From IMG/VR virus record IMGVR_UViG_2537562195_000010: a stretch of 53,150 nucleotides of DNA. One strand, written 5' to 3'. Shown here piece by piece: positions 4,363-26,889 of this stretch (its first letter is position 1; every line of letters starts with the position of its first letter). This DNA comes from a virus. Lineage: Duplodnaviria; Heunggongvirae; Uroviricota; Caudoviricetes. The notes beneath the pieces were generated by a model, which searched no databases, was not told where the DNA came from, and was given only the letters and a program-made list of their open reading frames with translations. A program made the translations under genes and the position numbers.

Positions 4363-4899
4363 TATCGCGTCCTCAACAATGAATTTTGTGATGTGGTGCC
4401 TGGTGCCTCCAGGTGACGTTAACCAGTTAACAATTAACGCCGGATTGTTAGTTGATGTCTGTTACGCCAGTAAAAGACCGCTTGTTTTAACTGTTCCGCG
4501 TGCGCTTAGCCGCATTCACCGCATCACAAAATACACTTTAAAAATGGCGGATATCCATTTCCGCCGAATCACCAGAAAAGTGATAACAGAGGTTGTTGTG
4601 GCGGTGTTGTCACTCAGGCGCATGGTCAACCTGACAACCCGGTACATTTTCTGGAGCAATGGAGGAAGCCCCAGCCATACTTACCGCCGCGCCATTTCGC
4701 GGATTGCCACAACCGGAAGCGCACGATCGAATTAAATTTAACGACAAGCCTTATATTCTCGCCGTGCGCTTTCGTGTTATGCCCTGACTTTTCAGGGATA
4801 TGTTCTTTCAGCAAACTGTCAGTGCCGGATTCTTATCCGTGTCCGGCGCACGACCACACGTGACAGCGTGTTGGTCTCCATCATTAACCCGGAACCTCT

Positions 4900-17766: not shown

Positions 17767-17842
17767 GGCCCTTTAGCTCAGTGGTGAGAGCGAGCGACTC
17801 ATAATCGCCAGGTCGCTGGTTCAAATCCAGCAAGGGCCACCA
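17767..17842 (+). tRNA. tRNA with CAU anticodon (Met or lysidine-modified Ile2)
   Basis: Hand-folded cloverleaf: acceptor GGCCCTT/AAGGGCC, D-arm GCTC...GAGC, anticodon loop CTCATAA, T-arm GCTGG-TTCAAAT-CCAGC, encoded CCA. Confidence 0.85.
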
Positions 17843-17850
17843 TATCCATA

Positions 17851-17927
17851 CCGCCATTAGCTCATCGGGATAGAGCGCCAGCCTTCGAAGCTGGCTGCGC
17901 GGGGTTCGAGTCCTCGATGGCGGTCCA
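17851..17927 (+). tRNA. tRNA-Arg (anticodon UCG)
   Basis: Hand-folded cloverleaf: acceptor CCGCCAT/ATGGCGG, anticodon stem CCAGC/GCTGG with loop CTTCGAA, T-loop TTCGAGT, encoded CCA. Confidence 0.85.
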
Positions 17928-18700: not shown

Positions 18701-18950
18701 GTGTTAAATCCCTCACAATTCAGTAAGTTGACAGTTGCCTGTCAGACTGAGCATTTGTTAAAAAAATTTCGCATGGTGAATCCCCCTGTGCGGAGGGGCG
18801 ACTGGTGAACGGTATGATCTCTTTGATGATCGTAAGCGAGAATACGCGGGTTTGGTGTCACCGGGCTGAACTCACCGGGAGGCACCCGGCACCATGCTCA
18901 TGGTGATACAGAAATGCGGCTTCAGCCCCTCTCCGGAGGGGCTTTCTTAT
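18701..18950 (+). repeat. Structured repeat unit A (family of five; possible sRNA gene or promoter-terminator cassette)
   Basis: Contains the conserved blocks 'GTTAAATCCCTCACA', 'TTGTTAAAAAAA', hairpin 'GGTGAATCCCCCTGTGCGGAGGGGC', hairpin 'CACCGGGAGGCACCCGGCACC' and terminator 'GCCCCTC-TCCG-GAGGGGC-TTTCTT' (18925-18948). Confidence 0.7.
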
Positions 18951-19110
18951 GGACAAAAAAAGCCCGCGCTGGGAGACGCGGGCGGCAAGGAATAAACAAT
19001 AAAACGTGAAGTAATACTTCAACTGGCGAATAATACCCGACAGTAATCACTCTGCGCAATAGCGTGGCCTTTTTCGAATTGCGGGCTGTAGTCTCCCTTC
19101 TGCTGGGTGT

Positions 19111-20671: not shown

Positions 20672-20907
20672 ATGTTAAATGACTCACAATTCGGTTGATG
20701 GGCTATTGTCTGATCGATGGAAGTCTTGTAAAAACGAGCCAGCATAGTGAATCCCCCTGTGCGGAGGGGCGTCTGACATGGTCTCCATAGCGATGGTCAC
20801 AATACGCAGATTCAGTAGTCAGGCTGAATCTACCGGGAGGCACCCGGCACTATGCTGCTTATGGTGTATACATAGCGATCGGCCCCTCTCCGGAGGGGCT
20901 TTTTTTG
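20672..20907 (+). repeat. Structured repeat unit B
   Basis: Same conserved blocks as unit A ('GTTAAATGACTCACA', 'AGTGAATCCCCCTGTGCGGAGGGGC', 'TACCGGGAGGCACCCGGCAC', terminator 'GGCCCCTCTCCGGAGGGGCTTTTTTT'). Confidence 0.7.
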
Positions 20908-20929
20908 TGCGGGAAAAGGCTGTGTTGTT

Positions 20930-21175
20930 AAGTGTTAAATTCCTCACAGTTCAGATGGTTGATGCTTGCCTGTCTGAGGGGGAGTTGTTAAAAAAGTTCT
21001 GCATGGTGAATCCCCCTGTGCGGAGGGGCGACTGGTATGATTTGCATCTTTTCTGTTGTAGGCAATGCAAACGCGGGTTCAGGGACACCAGACTGGACTC
21101 ACCGGGAGGCACCCGGCACCATGTTCATGATGATACAGATACGCAGTGTCAGCCCCTCTCCTGAGGGGCTTTTTT
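20930..21175 (+). repeat. Structured repeat unit C
   Basis: Same conserved blocks; terminator 'AGCCCCTCTCCTGAGGGGCTTTTTT' at 21151-21175; variable central segment. Confidence 0.7.
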
Positions 21176-21202
21176 ATGCAGGAAAAACGCTGTGTTGTGA
21201 AA

Positions 21203-21436
21203 TGTTAAATTCCTCACAGTTCAGATGGTTGATGCTTGCCTGTCTTACGGGGAGTTGTTAAAAAAGTTCTGCATGGTGAATCCCCCTGAGCGGAGGGGCA
21301 TATCAGCGCAGGTGTTTCTACTCTATCCTTTCTGTGCGGGTTCAGGTGCTGATACTGAACTCACCGGGAGGCACCCGGCATCATGCATATGGTTAACAGA
21401 CAAGTAGCGAAGCCCCTCTCCGGAGGGGCTTTTTTA
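21203..21436 (+). repeat. Structured repeat unit D
   Basis: Same conserved blocks; terminator at 21411-21436. Confidence 0.7.
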
Positions 21437-21462
21437 TGCAGGGAAAAGGCTGTGTTGTGAAA

Positions 21463-21690
21463 TGTTAAATTCCTCACAATTCATGAGGTTGATGATTGTC
21501 TGATTGATGAGGAGTTTGTTAAAAAAAACGGGCATGGTGAATCCCCCTGTGCGGAGGGGTGATATCGTATCATTTCCTGTGTGGCCGACTGATATCACGG
21601 ACATTTGTTCACCGGGAGGCACCCGGCACCATGCAGTATACAGAGATTAGGCATACATCCAGGCTCCTCATCGCAGGAGCCTTTTTACAT
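21463..21690 (+). repeat. Structured repeat unit E
   Basis: Same conserved 5' blocks; central segment forms its own inverted repeat ('GTGATATCG...CGACTGATATCAC'); different terminator hairpin 'GGCTCCT-CATCGC-AGGAGCC-TTTTTA'. Confidence 0.65.
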
Positions 21691-21918
21691 GTAAAAAAAA
21701 CCGCTCCTGGGAAGAGCGGTTGGCAAGGAAGCAAGGAATAAATAACAAAACGTGAAGTAATTTATTCAGCACCCTAATAATACCTTAGAGTAATCACCTT
21801 GCGCAACTGTAAGGGCGTATTTCTTTTTTGCGGGCTGTTTTTCTGTGTGACTTTTGTGTTTCCGGAGGTCAGCCCGTGCCTTCTCTGACTCAGAACATTA
21901 TCCCGGCCGGGAGGATTC

Positions 21919-23883: not shown

Positions 23884-24017
23884 TAAAAAAAGCCGCCAGC
23901 TACCGGAATGGACTGGCGGTGGTAATACCCATGGAGAAATATAAAGGAACGATACTTTCGTGCTCTGTTTTTTTAAATGAAAACAGTTCTTATTGTCAAC
24001 AATAACGGAAAGAAATT

Positions 24018-24197
24018 ATGACATTTCTGAACCAGTTAATGCTGTACTTCTGTACGGTGGTCTGTGTGCTGTATCTCCTTTCGGGTGGATACCGGGCCAT
24101 GCGTGACTTCTGGCGCAGACAGATTGACAAAAGGGCCGCTGAGAAAATCAGCGCCAGTCAGTCAGCCGGAAGCAAACCCGAAGAGCCGCTCGTTTAG
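24018..24197 (+). CDS. Small putative membrane protein (59 aa)
   Basis: 'MTFLNQLMLYFCTVVCVLYLLSGGYRAMRDFWRRQ...'; one TM helix then a basic tail; weak RBS; below the ORF-track size threshold. Confidence 0.3.
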   Translation: MTFLNQLMLYFCTVVCVLYLLSGGYRAMRDFWRRQIDKRAAEKISASQSAGSKPEEPLV

Positions 24198-24237
24198 CGG
24201 CAACTTTCTTAATCACACCTTTCGACGAGAAAATCCC

Positions 24238-24483
24238 ATGTCAGAAATTACATCCCTGGTCACTGCTGAAGCAGTGAAGGACGTCCTGCGCTCTGAAGAA
24301 GTCCTGAGCGCACTGAAACAGAAACTTCGCCATAACCTGGAAGCGCGTCTTGATGCAGAAGTGGATGCCATTCTGGATGAACTGCTGGGCGCACCGGCAG
24401 CTCCGGAGCCGGAAGGCATCGCGGGAGAGGGGAGTGCTTCAGATAGCGGTGACCCCACACCTGACAGCGACATGATGATGTAA
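24238..24483 (+). CDS. Hypothetical acidic protein
   Basis: 81 aa from '[16 protein letters not shown]...'; the ORF-track start at 24064 is probably too far upstream. Confidence 0.4.
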
Positions 24484-24560
24484 GCATGCGTCAGGGACCA
24501 TCGGTGTGTGCCGGTGGTCTTTTTTATTGTTGTGAGCTTCCGGATTGCGGGAGGCGGGGT

Positions 24561-24776
24561 ATGTACCAGATGGAAAAAATCACAACAGGTGTGTCATACA
24601 CCACGTCAGCGGTGGGAACGGGCTACTGGTTCCTGCAGTTGCTGGACAAAGTCTCCCCGTCTCAGTGGGCGGCAATAGGCGTGCTGGGGAGTCTGCTGTT
24701 TGGGCTGCTGACATATCTGACGAACCTGTATTTCAAAATTAAAGAAGACCGGCGTAAGGCGGCGCGGGGAGAGTAG
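24561..24776 (+). CDS. Pinholin (phage 21 S-type class II holin, dual start)
   Basis: 71 aa '[71 protein letters not shown]'; two TM helices and a Met1/Met4 dual-start motif characteristic of S21. Confidence 0.85.
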
Positions 24777-24779
24777 ACG

Positions 24780-25571
24780 ATGAATAAACAATACGAACTG
24801 GTTGTTAAAGGGATAAATATTTACCCGGATAAGATTACTGTTACTGTGGCGCTGGAAACTGGTGGGTATACGTCACTGTTGTTGCCAAATGTGGTGATTG
24901 ATCTTGATCGTGTTGAAGGTGCCCCGCTGGAGTTTTACGAAGCTGAGGCGAAAAAGAAGGCGAAGCAGTTTTTCATGGATATTGCTGCCGGGTTATGTGA
25001 AGGGAACGAACCGTTGCCGGAAAAGCGCCTCTGTTCAGAAGAGCGGTATACCATACAAATTAACAATGCATATAACACGATACAGTCAGAAAAAGATGAT
25101 ATCGAATCACGCATTGAAAAACTGGAGAACAGCGTCGTTGAACTGAATAAAAAACTGTCGGTGCAGATCCCTTCCGAAGGTGAAAAAAAACGCCGTGATG
25201 AGCAGTTCGCGGCGTTTTACGATTATTGCCGGAAAGTGATGAGCAGAAATCTCGCAGAGTGTTTCCGTATTCAAAAAAACAGAGAGCGCTCTGCAAATAG
25301 TGAGATTCTGGATAATTTTTTAAAGGGGACGCATCTCGCCAGTGATTGTTTCATTGCTCATTCTTTTGGTGGCTTTCATGAGGCCATCAAACATGATGTT
25401 GAGAGAAGTCCAGGTATCCTCTGTTCCATTCCCGTAAGCATCGAAATAGACACAAATACGATAACCGGTGAACTCGTTACCGCCGGAGTCGGTATATTCC
25501 GTCATGAGGGGAACGATGCCAAAGGTTCCTTTACAAAAATCGGGCCGTTCTTTCTGAAGGTAGAGCGATAG
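24780..25571 (+). CDS. Hypothetical protein inserted between holin and endolysin (coiled-coil centre)
   Basis: 263 aa ORF starting 3 nt after the pinholin stop with a GGGGAGAG RBS; central predicted coiled coil; last ~250 nt overlap a convergent minus-strand ORF in the complementary register, so the true 3' end is uncertain. Confidence 0.45.
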   Translation: MNKQYELVVKGINIYPDKITVTVALETGGYTSLLLPNVVIDLDRVEGAPLEFYEAEAKKKAKQFFMDIAAGLCEGNEPLPEKRLCSEERYTIQINNAYNTIQSEKDDIESRIEKLENSVVELNKKLSVQIPSEGEKKRRDEQFAAFYDYCRKVMSRNLAECFRIQKNRERSANSEILDNFLKGTHLASDCFIAHSFGGFHEAIKHDVERSPGILCSIPVSIEIDTNTITGELVTAGVGIFRHEGNDAKGSFTKIGPFFLKVER

Positions 25572-25952
25572 TTTGTTAAGTACCCATCCGACAGCTCGCT
25601 CATTTTGGTTTATTTTCGTATCGCGAAACAAAAATTCGAAGCGGCCAGATGACGCATGGGTGCAACCAAATACCGGGGCGTATTCATCAACCTTTGGTGT
25701 TCCTGAAAACATGCAGTCCGTGCTCTCGAATGCAGATGAATTGCTGTTGATCCACTTAACAAAAGAAAAAAAGGTCTGAATCGCTTGTCTGTCTGAATAT
25801 TCAACAAAATCCTCAAGGTGTGTCTCGATCAGTTCCGGGTGTTTACGAAAGTCATAATATTGACCGGGACGATATTTATGAGTGGTTGTTTTATCCCATG
25901 GTTGTGCTCTGCGTCCCTGTAAACGGAGGTCTGCCGCTGGATAGATAAGCAT
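25320..25952 (-). CDS. Hypothetical protein, antisense to late transcription
   Basis: 211 aa from 'MLIYPAADLRL...'; AGGAGA RBS 6 nt upstream of the ATG on the minus strand; E. coli-like codon choice; no family recognised. Confidence 0.5.
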   Translation of the reverse strand: MLIYPAADLRLQGRRAQPWDKTTTHKYRPGQYYDFRKHPELIETHLEDFVEYSDRQAIQTFFSFVKWINSNSSAFESTDCMFSGTPKVDEYAPVFGCTHASSGRFEFLFRDTKINQNERAVGWVLNKLSLYLQKERPDFCKGTFGIVPLMTEYTDSGGNEFTGYRICVYFDAYGNGTEDTWTSLNIMFDGLMKATKRMSNETITGEMRPL

Positions 25953-26082
25953 AAGTAATCTCCTGGTGGAATGTAATCCACGATCATCCGGGGAAATTAA
26001 GAACCCGCCAGTGCCCACCACTGGTGGGGTGAAGGCTTAACATATCCAGGGATTCGGAACCGATAAATCCTGATAAATATCC

Positions 26083-26616
26083 ATGAACACCAAAATCAAA
26101 TACGGCCTGTCGGCTGCCGTTCTGGCGCTGATTGCCGCAGGGGCGCCTGCGCCTGATATTCTCGACCAGTTTCTGGATGAAAAAGAAGGTAACCACACCA
26201 CGGCATACCGTGATGGTGCGGGTATCTGGACCATTTGTCGTGGTGCCACCAGGGTGGATGGCAAACCTGTCGTCCCGGGCATGAAGTTGTCGAAGAAAAA
26301 ATGCGACCAGGTTAACGCCATTGAGCGTGATAAGGCGCTGGCATGGGTGGAGAAAAACATCAAAGTGCCACTGACTGAACCCCAGAAAGCGGGTATTGCG
26401 TCATTCTGTCCTTACAACATTGGCCCCGGTAAGTGTTTCAGCTCAACGTTTTACCGGAAACTGAACGCCGGAGACCGTAAAGGCGCATGTGCTGAAATTC
26501 GTCGCTGGATATATGACGGTGGTCAGGACTGCCGTATTCGTTCAAACAACTGTTACGGTCAGGTATCCCGTCGTGACCAGGAGAGCGCGCTGGCGTGCTG
26601 GGGAATCGACAGATAA
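26083..26616 (+). CDS. SAR endolysin (phage lysozyme, R21-like)
   Basis: 177 aa; G/A-rich weakly hydrophobic N-terminal SAR segment 'GLSAAVLALIAAGAPAP'; lysozyme catalytic region 'DEKEGNHTTAYRDGAGIWTICRGAT'; pairs with the pinholin. Confidence 0.85.
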   Translation: MNTKIKYGLSAAVLALIAAGAPAPDILDQFLDEKEGNHTTAYRDGAGIWTICRGATRVDGKPVVPGMKLSKKKCDQVNAIERDKALAWVEKNIKVPLTEPQKAGIASFCPYNIGPGKCFSSTFYRKLNAGDRKGACAEIRRWIYDGGQDCRIRSNNCYGQVSRRDQESALACWGIDR

Positions 26617-26889
26617 GCAGAATATTTTGCTGAAAAATGATGTTGGCCAACGCGGGCGGATAACACGAAATCCTGCGAACTGGCAAAACCTAAGTGAATA
26701 AAGTCAGGAACATTGTTTCACGCAGAGGCACCGTAATGGTGCCTTTGTCATTTCTGCGCTTCGCACAAGCGTAAATAAACCAAAGAACCTTTCAGGATGA
26801 GCCCTGGTGGATAACCGGCAGTGGTCTGGTTAACCCTCTTTGGGCTGGTTATTCCTGTGCGCAGGGTTCATTACTAAAAGGAATCAACC

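Follow-up and report, generated by a model that had tools for sequence, protein, structure and literature searches.

Why do two convergent open reading frames (ORFs) stand between the holin and endolysin genes of a Shiga toxin (Stx)-type prophage? The question arises in the virus record IMGVR_UViG_2537562195_000010 (IMG/VR; Caudoviricetes), whose whole 53,150-nucleotide stretch we call the window and whose setting is the late region of an Escherichia coli Stx-type lambdoid prophage. In this region, the gene for an S21-type holin (24561-24776, plus strand) and the gene for the endolysin (26083-26616, plus strand) are separated by a plus-strand ORF of 263 amino acids (aa; 24780-25571), which starts 3 nt past the holin stop codon, and by a minus-strand ORF of 210 aa (25320-25952), which we call ORF210. 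A preliminary description, made from the sequence alone, placed these four genes as sequence and Pfam matches place them, and it read the interval as a 1.3-kb two-gene insert that splits a normally adjacent pair. We conclude instead that the 3′ third of a resident ydfR-family gene has very probably been replaced by a single-gene moron of ~800 bp, which lies against the direction of late transcription. The preliminary description was right that foreign DNA occupies the holin-endolysin junction and that it carries an uncharacterized, well-formed gene antisense to late transcription. The unit is an ordinary kind of prophage add-on with undescribed cargo, and nothing about it is categorically new.

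Borders and spread of the inserted DNA

A search of positions 25029-26082 against 5426 complete E. coli genomes divided the interval into three zones. The outer two (25029-25276 and 26007-26082) match many prophages, and the middle one (25277-26006) is present in 132 of the 5426 genomes only. Alignment with four alternative versions of the junction set the left breakpoint at 25272|25273. Up to this breakpoint the shared sequence, which ends in CCGTATTC, has 99% identity between the window and strain OkiPb01694, and homology to the OkiPb01694 and SS17 arrangement resumes at ~26073, beginning with ATATCCATG, which indicates that the replaced segment spans ~25273-26072. These two breakpoints therefore delimit inserted DNA of ~800 bp with one gene, rather than two genes in 1.3 kb, and leave the plus-strand ORF as a truncated resident gene. 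The same slot is filled otherwise at loci L003, L004, L006 and L201, and the presence of the segment in some phages and its absence from other close phages at the same position is the pattern of a moron. Comparison of the junction across related prophages thus recovered the presence and absence of an insert, but only from 25273 to ~26072.

The DNA to the left of the breakpoint belongs to the resident gene, the native part of which comprises codons 1-164 (24780-25272, plus strand). Residues 1-96 match DUF1327 (Pfam PF07041; E=7.5e-34, 116.3 bits against a gathering cut-off of 25), which supplies a family where the preliminary description had recognized none, and residues ~100-164 form a coiled-coil segment. 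The profiles phrog_2091 and phrog_1085 (183 and 296 positions) match residues 1-168/171 and no further. The N-terminus is 38% identical to YdfR of E. coli K-12, and residues 106-167 are 68% identical to a 185-aa protein of SS17. The Qin prophage of K-12 has the same gene order, essQ-ydfR-rrrQ, and DNA of the ydfR N-terminal region is found in 3162 of the 5426 genomes, where the usual labels are 'YdfR family protein' or 'DUF1327 domain-containing protein'. A ydfR-family gene between holin and endolysin genes is therefore routine, which overturns the premise that the two are normally adjacent.

An intact version of the resident gene is present in OkiPb01694 (L003), where an ORF of 287 aa has the same first 163 residues with few substitutions, continues into a different C-terminal domain of 123 residues and stops 37 nt before the lysozyme gene. 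Measured against this allele, the plus-strand ORF of the window is not a full-length DUF1327/YdfR gene. Codon 164 is the last one with homology; beyond it, the native C-terminal domain and its stop codon have been lost, and the frame stays open for 99 more codons until its first stop at 25571. The Prokaryotic Genome Annotation Pipeline (PGAP) flags the window-type allele as a pseudogene ('incomplete... missing C-terminus'). The added stretch, codons 165-263 (25273-25571, plus strand), is a read-through tail, as homology to every related ydfR-family gene stops at 25272. It runs antisense to the conserved ORF210, and homologues of the tail were found only at loci with the same insert. By this comparison the tail, if translated at all, would be read from the terminator of the inserted gene and from its antisense strand, and would not be conserved coding sequence.

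The truncated YdfR-like protein, which keeps DUF1327 and the coiled coil, may still work, because K-12 YdfR is only 103 aa long. K-12 YdfR reportedly binds the catalytic N-terminal half of RNase E by way of its residues 1-72, and co-purification with RNA was reported as well (2026, PMC13232886); no further functional information on the YdfR/DUF1327 family was found in the literature. Like YdfR of Qin, the plus-strand ORF has a DUF1327 N-terminus and lies between an essQ-type holin and an rrrQ-type lysozyme. Unlike it, the window protein contains an additional coiled-coil segment, its native C-terminal domain was lost to the insertion, and the RNase E binding reported concerns K-12 YdfR.

We also examined how far the insert varies among the loci that carry it. 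Across 24 insert-bearing loci, the insert differs by only 6 substitutions and a few single-base indels, whereas the flanks differ by 2.5-5%. The same insert also stands behind a different upstream gene without DUF1327 (L005). A near-invariant insert, diverged flanks and a second upstream gene together indicate recent spread among diverged prophages. Because the insert is almost invariant, selection on the overlap between the two ORFs could be assessed only with no power across the 24 loci. No direct or inverted repeats were found flanking the insert junctions, so there is no sign of transposition, and recombination between mosaic phages is the likely route of insertion. The interval is AT-rich, as first described, with a G+C content of 0.44-0.45 against 0.53-0.54 in the holin and lysozyme genes. 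However, low G+C is no marker of the insert (0.45), because the resident ydfR-like part is equally low (0.438). A separate feature of the interval is a perfect 12-nt inverted repeat, TTCATGGATATT / AATATCCATGAA, at 24972-24983 and 26076-26087, with one arm across the endolysin start codon and the other within the DUF1327 coding region; it is probably due to chance (estimated at ~0.07 for the region).

ORF210 and its relatives

Judged from its conservation, ORF210 (25320-25952, minus strand) is a real protein-coding gene. A word-indexed search returned full-length homologues of 210-219 aa at 65, 64, 54 and 53% identity, and their alignment contains 80 invariant columns and places the conserved start at the ATG at 25952, not at an upstream GTG. 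In a profile search of 1.84 billion representatives, relatives fell into 251 clusters at E<=1e-3 and 183 at E<=1e-10 (clusters at 50% identity), nearly all of them 200-215 aa long. A second indexed search returned 776 clusters of the family at 90% identity, all labelled 'hypothetical', from Nitrospira, Vicinamibacterales, Tepidisphaeraceae and other bacteria. Genome scans added relatives in Pseudomonas, Symbiopectobacterium, Myxococcota, Acidobacteriota, Verrucomicrobia and Leptospirales; the scan of a genome collection with a mixed alignment of the family found 15 loci, and the scan with the enteric alignment found none.

The protein has a predicted mass of 24.3 kDa and an isoelectric point of 5.8, contains no hydrophobic segment and is presumably cytoplasmic. 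Its near-invariant residues include R15, P18, Y32, F35, P39, I42, L46, E47, D48 and F49 in the N-terminal part, followed by F61, N69, S73, E76, D79, R104, R110, N115, G163 and G174; the conserved acidic and basic residues among them suggest a catalytic or ligand-binding site. The AlphaFold2 (AF2) model is confident, with a predicted local distance difference test score (pLDDT) of 94.2 and a predicted template modeling score (pTM) of 0.91. A sequence-profile search of the PDB with ORF210 gave chance matches only (E~1). PADLOC-DB v2 matched neither ORF, and 81 ORF210 relatives gave three isolated hits only (E~0.008). The statement that no family could be recognized therefore holds for ORF210, which matches no library used, and the family is undescribed and has no known relatives. 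It adds a protein family of hundreds of clusters to the accessory repertoire of Stx-type prophages.

ORF210 is also a case of missed annotation. This conserved gene is unannotated in the RefSeq records inspected, and GenBank records of Stx phages (e.g., LC567825) give the 263-aa plus-strand ORF, a chimera, in its place. Four records of the locus (L001, L002, L005 and L023) are annotated inconsistently, and ORF210 is absent from all four. The PGAP variants comprise a truncated DUF1327 pseudogene with a bare minus strand, a spurious plus-strand ORF of 95 aa that results from a 1-bp deletion, and a read-through ORF of 161 aa.

Phage-borne relatives of ORF210 are always single genes on the strand opposite the surrounding late genes. 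One homologue lies directly beside the holin gene of a P22-like Salmonella prophage, another is near sodC in a Salmonella prophage remnant, and others are found between lambda-like tail genes I and J in >14 prophages and in one Symbiopectobacterium and one Pseudomonas tail module. The P22-like prophage, whose homologue is P0003, also has a Kiwa defense pair (KwaA/KwaB Pfam matches; L011, 11618-13257) in its Q-to-holin interval, ~3 kb from P0003. Family members from environmental bacteria are solitary chromosomal genes, most of them outside mobile elements. The relative in Nitrospira (L015, L016 and L019) is located between recA-recX-alaS and ligT-cinA, and in two other lineages (L017 and L020) it adjoins groEL or groES-groEL-dnaJ-grpE. 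Small ORFs upstream of the environmental relatives are unrelated to each other.

Because ORF210 homologues are solitary and occur in tail modules and in non-phage chromosomes, a lysis-specific or two-component role is not indicated, and no result here ties ORF210 to lysis. Like the cargo of prophage hotspots, ORF210 homologues share late-region hotspots with Kiwa (P0003) and sodC, and unrelated cargo uses the same slots; this company suggests a role that benefits the lysogen. Unlike defense cargo of such hotspots, ORF210 and its 81 relatives match no PADLOC model, and most family members are chromosomal and environmental.

The putative expression unit and its upstream cassette

The sequence elements on either side of ORF210 resemble those of a self-contained gene. 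A Shine-Dalgarno (SD) sequence, AGGAG (25960-25964, minus strand), is positioned 7 nt upstream of the ATG, which bears out the strong ribosome-binding site of the preliminary description, and homologues have AAGGA/AGGAG at the equivalent place. Downstream, a terminator scan and the breakpoint alignment identified an intrinsic-terminator-like hairpin, GCAGAG-CGCU-CUCUGU followed by T7 (25273-25294, minus strand). Its 6-bp G+C-rich stem lies 26 nt past the ORF210 stop codon, and its T run ends exactly at the left breakpoint. The segment thus has a terminator of its own downstream, as a moron does, albeit one that is weak by folding energy. Scans for sigma-70 promoters and terminators at the homologue loci gave no consistent calls.

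When the regions upstream of ORF210 homologues were aligned, they proved to share a conserved promoter-like motif, TATCAGGAT-N19-GGATATGTT (26039-26075, minus strand; also written TATCAGGAT-N19-GG(A/G)TATGTT), which in the window abuts the endolysin start codon. Its -10-like TATGTT is at 26039-26044; 87 nt separate the motif from the downstream ORF210 ATG and 7 nt from the endolysin ATG. The 53-kb window contains no second match, with 0.01 expected by chance. At the E. coli ORF210 loci, as well as beside the 53%-identity homologues between tail genes I and J, a single copy is present upstream of the gene and on its strand. Readings of the motif as a LexA box, a CII site (TTGC-N6-TTGC) or a sigma-54, sigma-32 or sigma-E promoter were rejected for misfits of spacing or sequence, in an informal comparison made by eye.

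The motif extends well beyond ORF210. A scan of IMG/VR found it at no fewer than 120 loci (L083-L200 among them), with many different cargo genes, and it recurs at the E. coli loci L006, L201 and L202. Among the IMG/VR loci listed, it stands 7 nt from the endolysin start, ~45 nt from the start of tail gene J or ~55 nt from the start of a tail L-like gene; all three settings have it directed away from the late gene, and an ORF begins 55-90 nt beyond it. Unrelated cargo families behind the motif number at least 15 among these loci, with proteins of 68-268 aa. Ten cargo representatives yielded just two Pfam matches, one to DUF6602 and a sub-threshold one to CxxCxxCC. Of the 5426 E. coli genomes, 2208 contain the 80-bp segment 26003-26082, at 4800 places, and in strain 12867 and CFT073 it precedes a different minus-strand gene of 86 aa.

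Downstream of TATGTT, the cassette encodes a conserved 5′-leader hairpin, CACCAGUG / GUGGG loop / CACUGGCG (26006-26026, minus strand). Across 23 cassette variants, 86% of the cells of its 8-bp helix are paired, and six of the eight pairs changed on both sides. None of 500 shuffles reached the observed value and slid controls gave 22-40% pairing, in a comparison where the structure was read from the same related sequences used to test it. The 15-nt palindrome of the preliminary description, CCCACCA-C-TGGTGGG, does exist, slightly to the right of the position quoted (26014-26028, not ~26000-26020), and it overlaps the leader hairpin but pairs in another register. The palindrome lies in the cassette common to thousands of prophages with other cargo or none, and is not specific to ORF210. 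Rfam 15 gave no match in 24400-26700 up to E=1.

Many tail-slot cassettes also contain a conserved element, GAGGG-ATG-GCT-GAT-(T/A)AC-CTC, past the hairpin (L112, L128, L136, L137, L142, L149, L155, L164 and L198). At some loci this element forms the in-frame start of the cargo (MADNL.../MADVL...), and at other loci it forms an upstream ORF of 5-9 codons that ends at or near the cargo start codon; the short ORF may point to coupled translation, or may be what is left of an ancestral gene start.

From these alignments, the motif and leader may together represent a portable moron promoter plus leader. A literature search for a described conserved moron promoter, or for the ORF210 gene itself, found nothing relevant. 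We tentatively propose, as a possible though doubtful extension of the moron reading, that ORF210 belongs to a new widespread protein family and is one cargo of an undescribed portable cassette (motif, covarying hairpin and often an SD-ATG-GCT-GAT start), which would occupy at least three late-operon slots of enterobacterial lambdoid prophages, beside endolysin gene R, tail gene J and a tail L-like gene, and would drive at least 15 unrelated, almost entirely uncharacterized small proteins in lysogens. If this is true, the cassette offers a handle for finding lysogen-expressed functions such as phage exclusion. A common promoter and leader suggests that many small antisense morons of late operons are co-regulated and exchanged as cassettes, and their cargos, if expressed in lysogens, would be candidates for roles in superinfection exclusion, stress or virulence in Shiga-toxigenic E. 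coli (STEC).

Proposed mechanism, rival readings and lysis-cassette setting

Morons of lambdoid phages are a concept of Juhala and Hendrix, and lambda bor is an example; its product, Bor, is a characterized outer-membrane lipoprotein that confers serum resistance. Like bor, the ORF210 unit consists of one accessory gene, accompanied by a promoter-like region and a terminator of its own; it has a patchy distribution among close phages, and it lies beside the lysis genes, against late transcription, with a composition unlike that of the neighboring late genes. Unlike Bor, the ORF210 product is predicted to be soluble and cytoplasmic, and the inserted DNA removed a resident gene's 3′ end rather than falling between genes. 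The architecture is that of a textbook moron, and no long-standing open question is touched.

We propose the following mechanism. The moron (~25273-26075, minus strand) would be a complete expression unit composed of promoter-like element, structured leader, strong ribosome-binding site, ORF210 and terminator. Its arrival removed the C-terminal domain and stop codon of the ydfR-like gene, so that the frame now continues into the terminator and along the antisense strand of ORF210, 99 codons in all, which leaves the 263-aa ORF and the overlap as by-products. In the lysogen, the cassette would drive ORF210 from its own promoter, as for lambda bor, and the terminator would keep the transcript from running antisense into the conserved ydfR part and the holin gene. 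After induction, Q-modified (Q-antiterminated) plus-strand late transcription would override the terminator and would collide or pair with ORF210 transcription, thereby silencing ORF210 in lytic growth; shut-off of a moron gene by late transcription is the logic known for lambda bor. ORF210 itself would be a soluble acidic alpha/beta protein of 24 kDa, acting as a cytoplasmic enzyme or ligand-binding factor through its near-invariant R15, E47, D48, E76, D79, R104, R110 and N115, to the benefit of the lysogen. Among classes of benefit, stress tolerance and exclusion of other phages would be likeliest.

Several results weigh against the moron reading or parts of it. With regard to the promoter, a strict sigma-70 scan of 24400-26700 called none, the motif has a poor -35 element, and the Salmonella and Pseudomonas homologues of ORF210 lack it. 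In some prophages the 80-bp cassette fills the ydfR-R intergenic space without any cargo, and its conservation could partly serve the late strand, e.g., the endolysin 5′ region. Neither the single-sequence fold of the leader nor that of the terminator (-8.2 kcal/mol) is better than those of shuffled sequences. As to the role of ORF210, the protein and 81 diverse relatives gave zero matches in Pfam, PHROG and NCBIfam, no close structural relative was found, and the association of relatives with recA-recX/ligT-cinA and groEL did not recur in 20 further loci.

The overlap between the two ORFs bears directly on the alternatives. It measures 252 bp (25320-25571), in agreement with the ~250 bp first estimated, and the plus-strand tail is antisense frame 0 of ORF210. 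In three of four ORF210 homologue genes, none of which has a convergent ORF reading in, the antisense frame is free of stops for 79-83 codons counted from the 3′ end; in the fourth, P0002, three stops close it. With 6 stops in 210 codons of antisense frame, an open run of 83 codons is not unusual (estimated at ~0.09). As far as these frames can tell, the overlap is a by-product or scar of insertion, not a designed antisense pair.

The preliminary description had raised the possibility of a lysis-timing, abortive-infection or toxin/antitoxin-like pair, in which a 263-aa late protein would act with an antisense 210-aa protein, or their overlapping mRNAs with each other. The ORFs are indeed convergent, the plus-strand ORF is positioned for late expression, and the overlap would permit RNA-RNA pairing of late mRNA with ORF210 mRNA. 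However, the overlapping part of the plus-strand ORF is non-homologous read-through, and the antisense frame is closed by three stops in P0002. The plus-strand ORF is no partner gene but the resident gene with its read-through tail; homologues of ORF210 are always solitary, without a ydfR partner, and the same insert stands behind a gene without DUF1327 at L005. Convergent orientation, solitary homologues and the lack of a toxin or antitoxin domain in either protein do not fit a type II toxin-antitoxin system, and PADLOC gave no defense-system match for either ORF. A two-gene module is largely refuted by these comparisons, and we regard it as very improbable. Still less credit can be given to the converse reading, in which the 263-aa ORF would be the genuine gene and the minus-strand ORF a chance shadow, as GenBank phage records (e.g., LC567825) annotate the region. 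The plus-strand ORF is the longest, has late-gene orientation and is listed as a 'hypothetical protein' in Stx phage records and one RefSeq genome, but the ORF210 family is full-length in unrelated genomic contexts and has a model of pLDDT 94, whereas the plus-strand tail has no homologues beyond loci with the same insert. The homologues of ORF210 contradict the shadow reading, which is refuted as far as sequence analysis goes.

A third reading, which we consider unlikely but less so than the other two, holds that antisense RNA is the key product and ORF210 a passenger. Transcription from the promoter beside R would enter the ydfR-holin region or cross the S-R interval, and the RNA, by pairing with late lysis mRNA, would curb leaky lysis in lysogens or exclude related phages that superinfect. 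The abundance of the cassette, which in some of the 2208 genomes is directly followed by the ydfR antisense strand without a cargo ORF, is in its favor, as is the precedent of STnc6030 in the Salmonella prophage BTP1, a lysogen-expressed antisense RNA within late genes that mediates superinfection exclusion (PMC7067206). Like STnc6030, the predicted ORF210 transcript is antisense to late genes of its own prophage. Unlike STnc6030, which is non-coding and lies within injection and tailspike genes, the ORF210 unit encodes a conserved protein and is terminated before conserved late coding regions. An RNA role leaves unexplained the strong conservation of ORF210 as a protein (homologues at 53-65% identity and hundreds of non-phage genomes), the ORF210 terminator precedes the conserved ydfR part and the holin gene, and no Rfam family matches the region.

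Several STEC chromosomes match 24400-26700 at 99.9% identity (megablast), with an adjoining SASA/NanS-type esterase gene and, in one of them, stx2 nearby as well. The S21-type holin is of class II (24561-24776; Pfam PF04971 Phage_holin_2_1, E=2.9e-33) and is labeled 'class II holin family protein' in RefSeq. The endolysin is a phage lysozyme with a hydrophobic G/A-rich N-terminus (26083-26616; Pfam PF00959 Phage_lysozyme, E=5.5e-27) and is labeled 'lysozyme' in RefSeq. Both genes lie outside the insert. A gene for a 231-aa phage antirepressor (26890-27585, plus strand), common to related prophages, is located between the endolysin gene and an Rz-type lysis gene and is a second interruption of the lysis cassette.

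Further small genes lie upstream of the holin gene. RefSeq annotation places small DUF1378 and DUF826 ORFs in the esterase-to-holin interval (23884-24560), and the prophage small RNA (sRNA) genes pasA and pasC have been placed between sialic acid esterase and holin genes (2026 preprint, 10.64898/2026.05.13.724894). The Q-to-esterase interval, which is the site of the stx genes in related prophages, contains two tRNA genes (17767-17924, plus strand) and, just downstream of them, copies of the STnc100 sRNA family (Rfam RF02076). There are five such copies (119-172 bits): a single one at 18742-18954 and a head-to-tail array of four at 20713-21692 (plus strand). So many in one window seems unusual.

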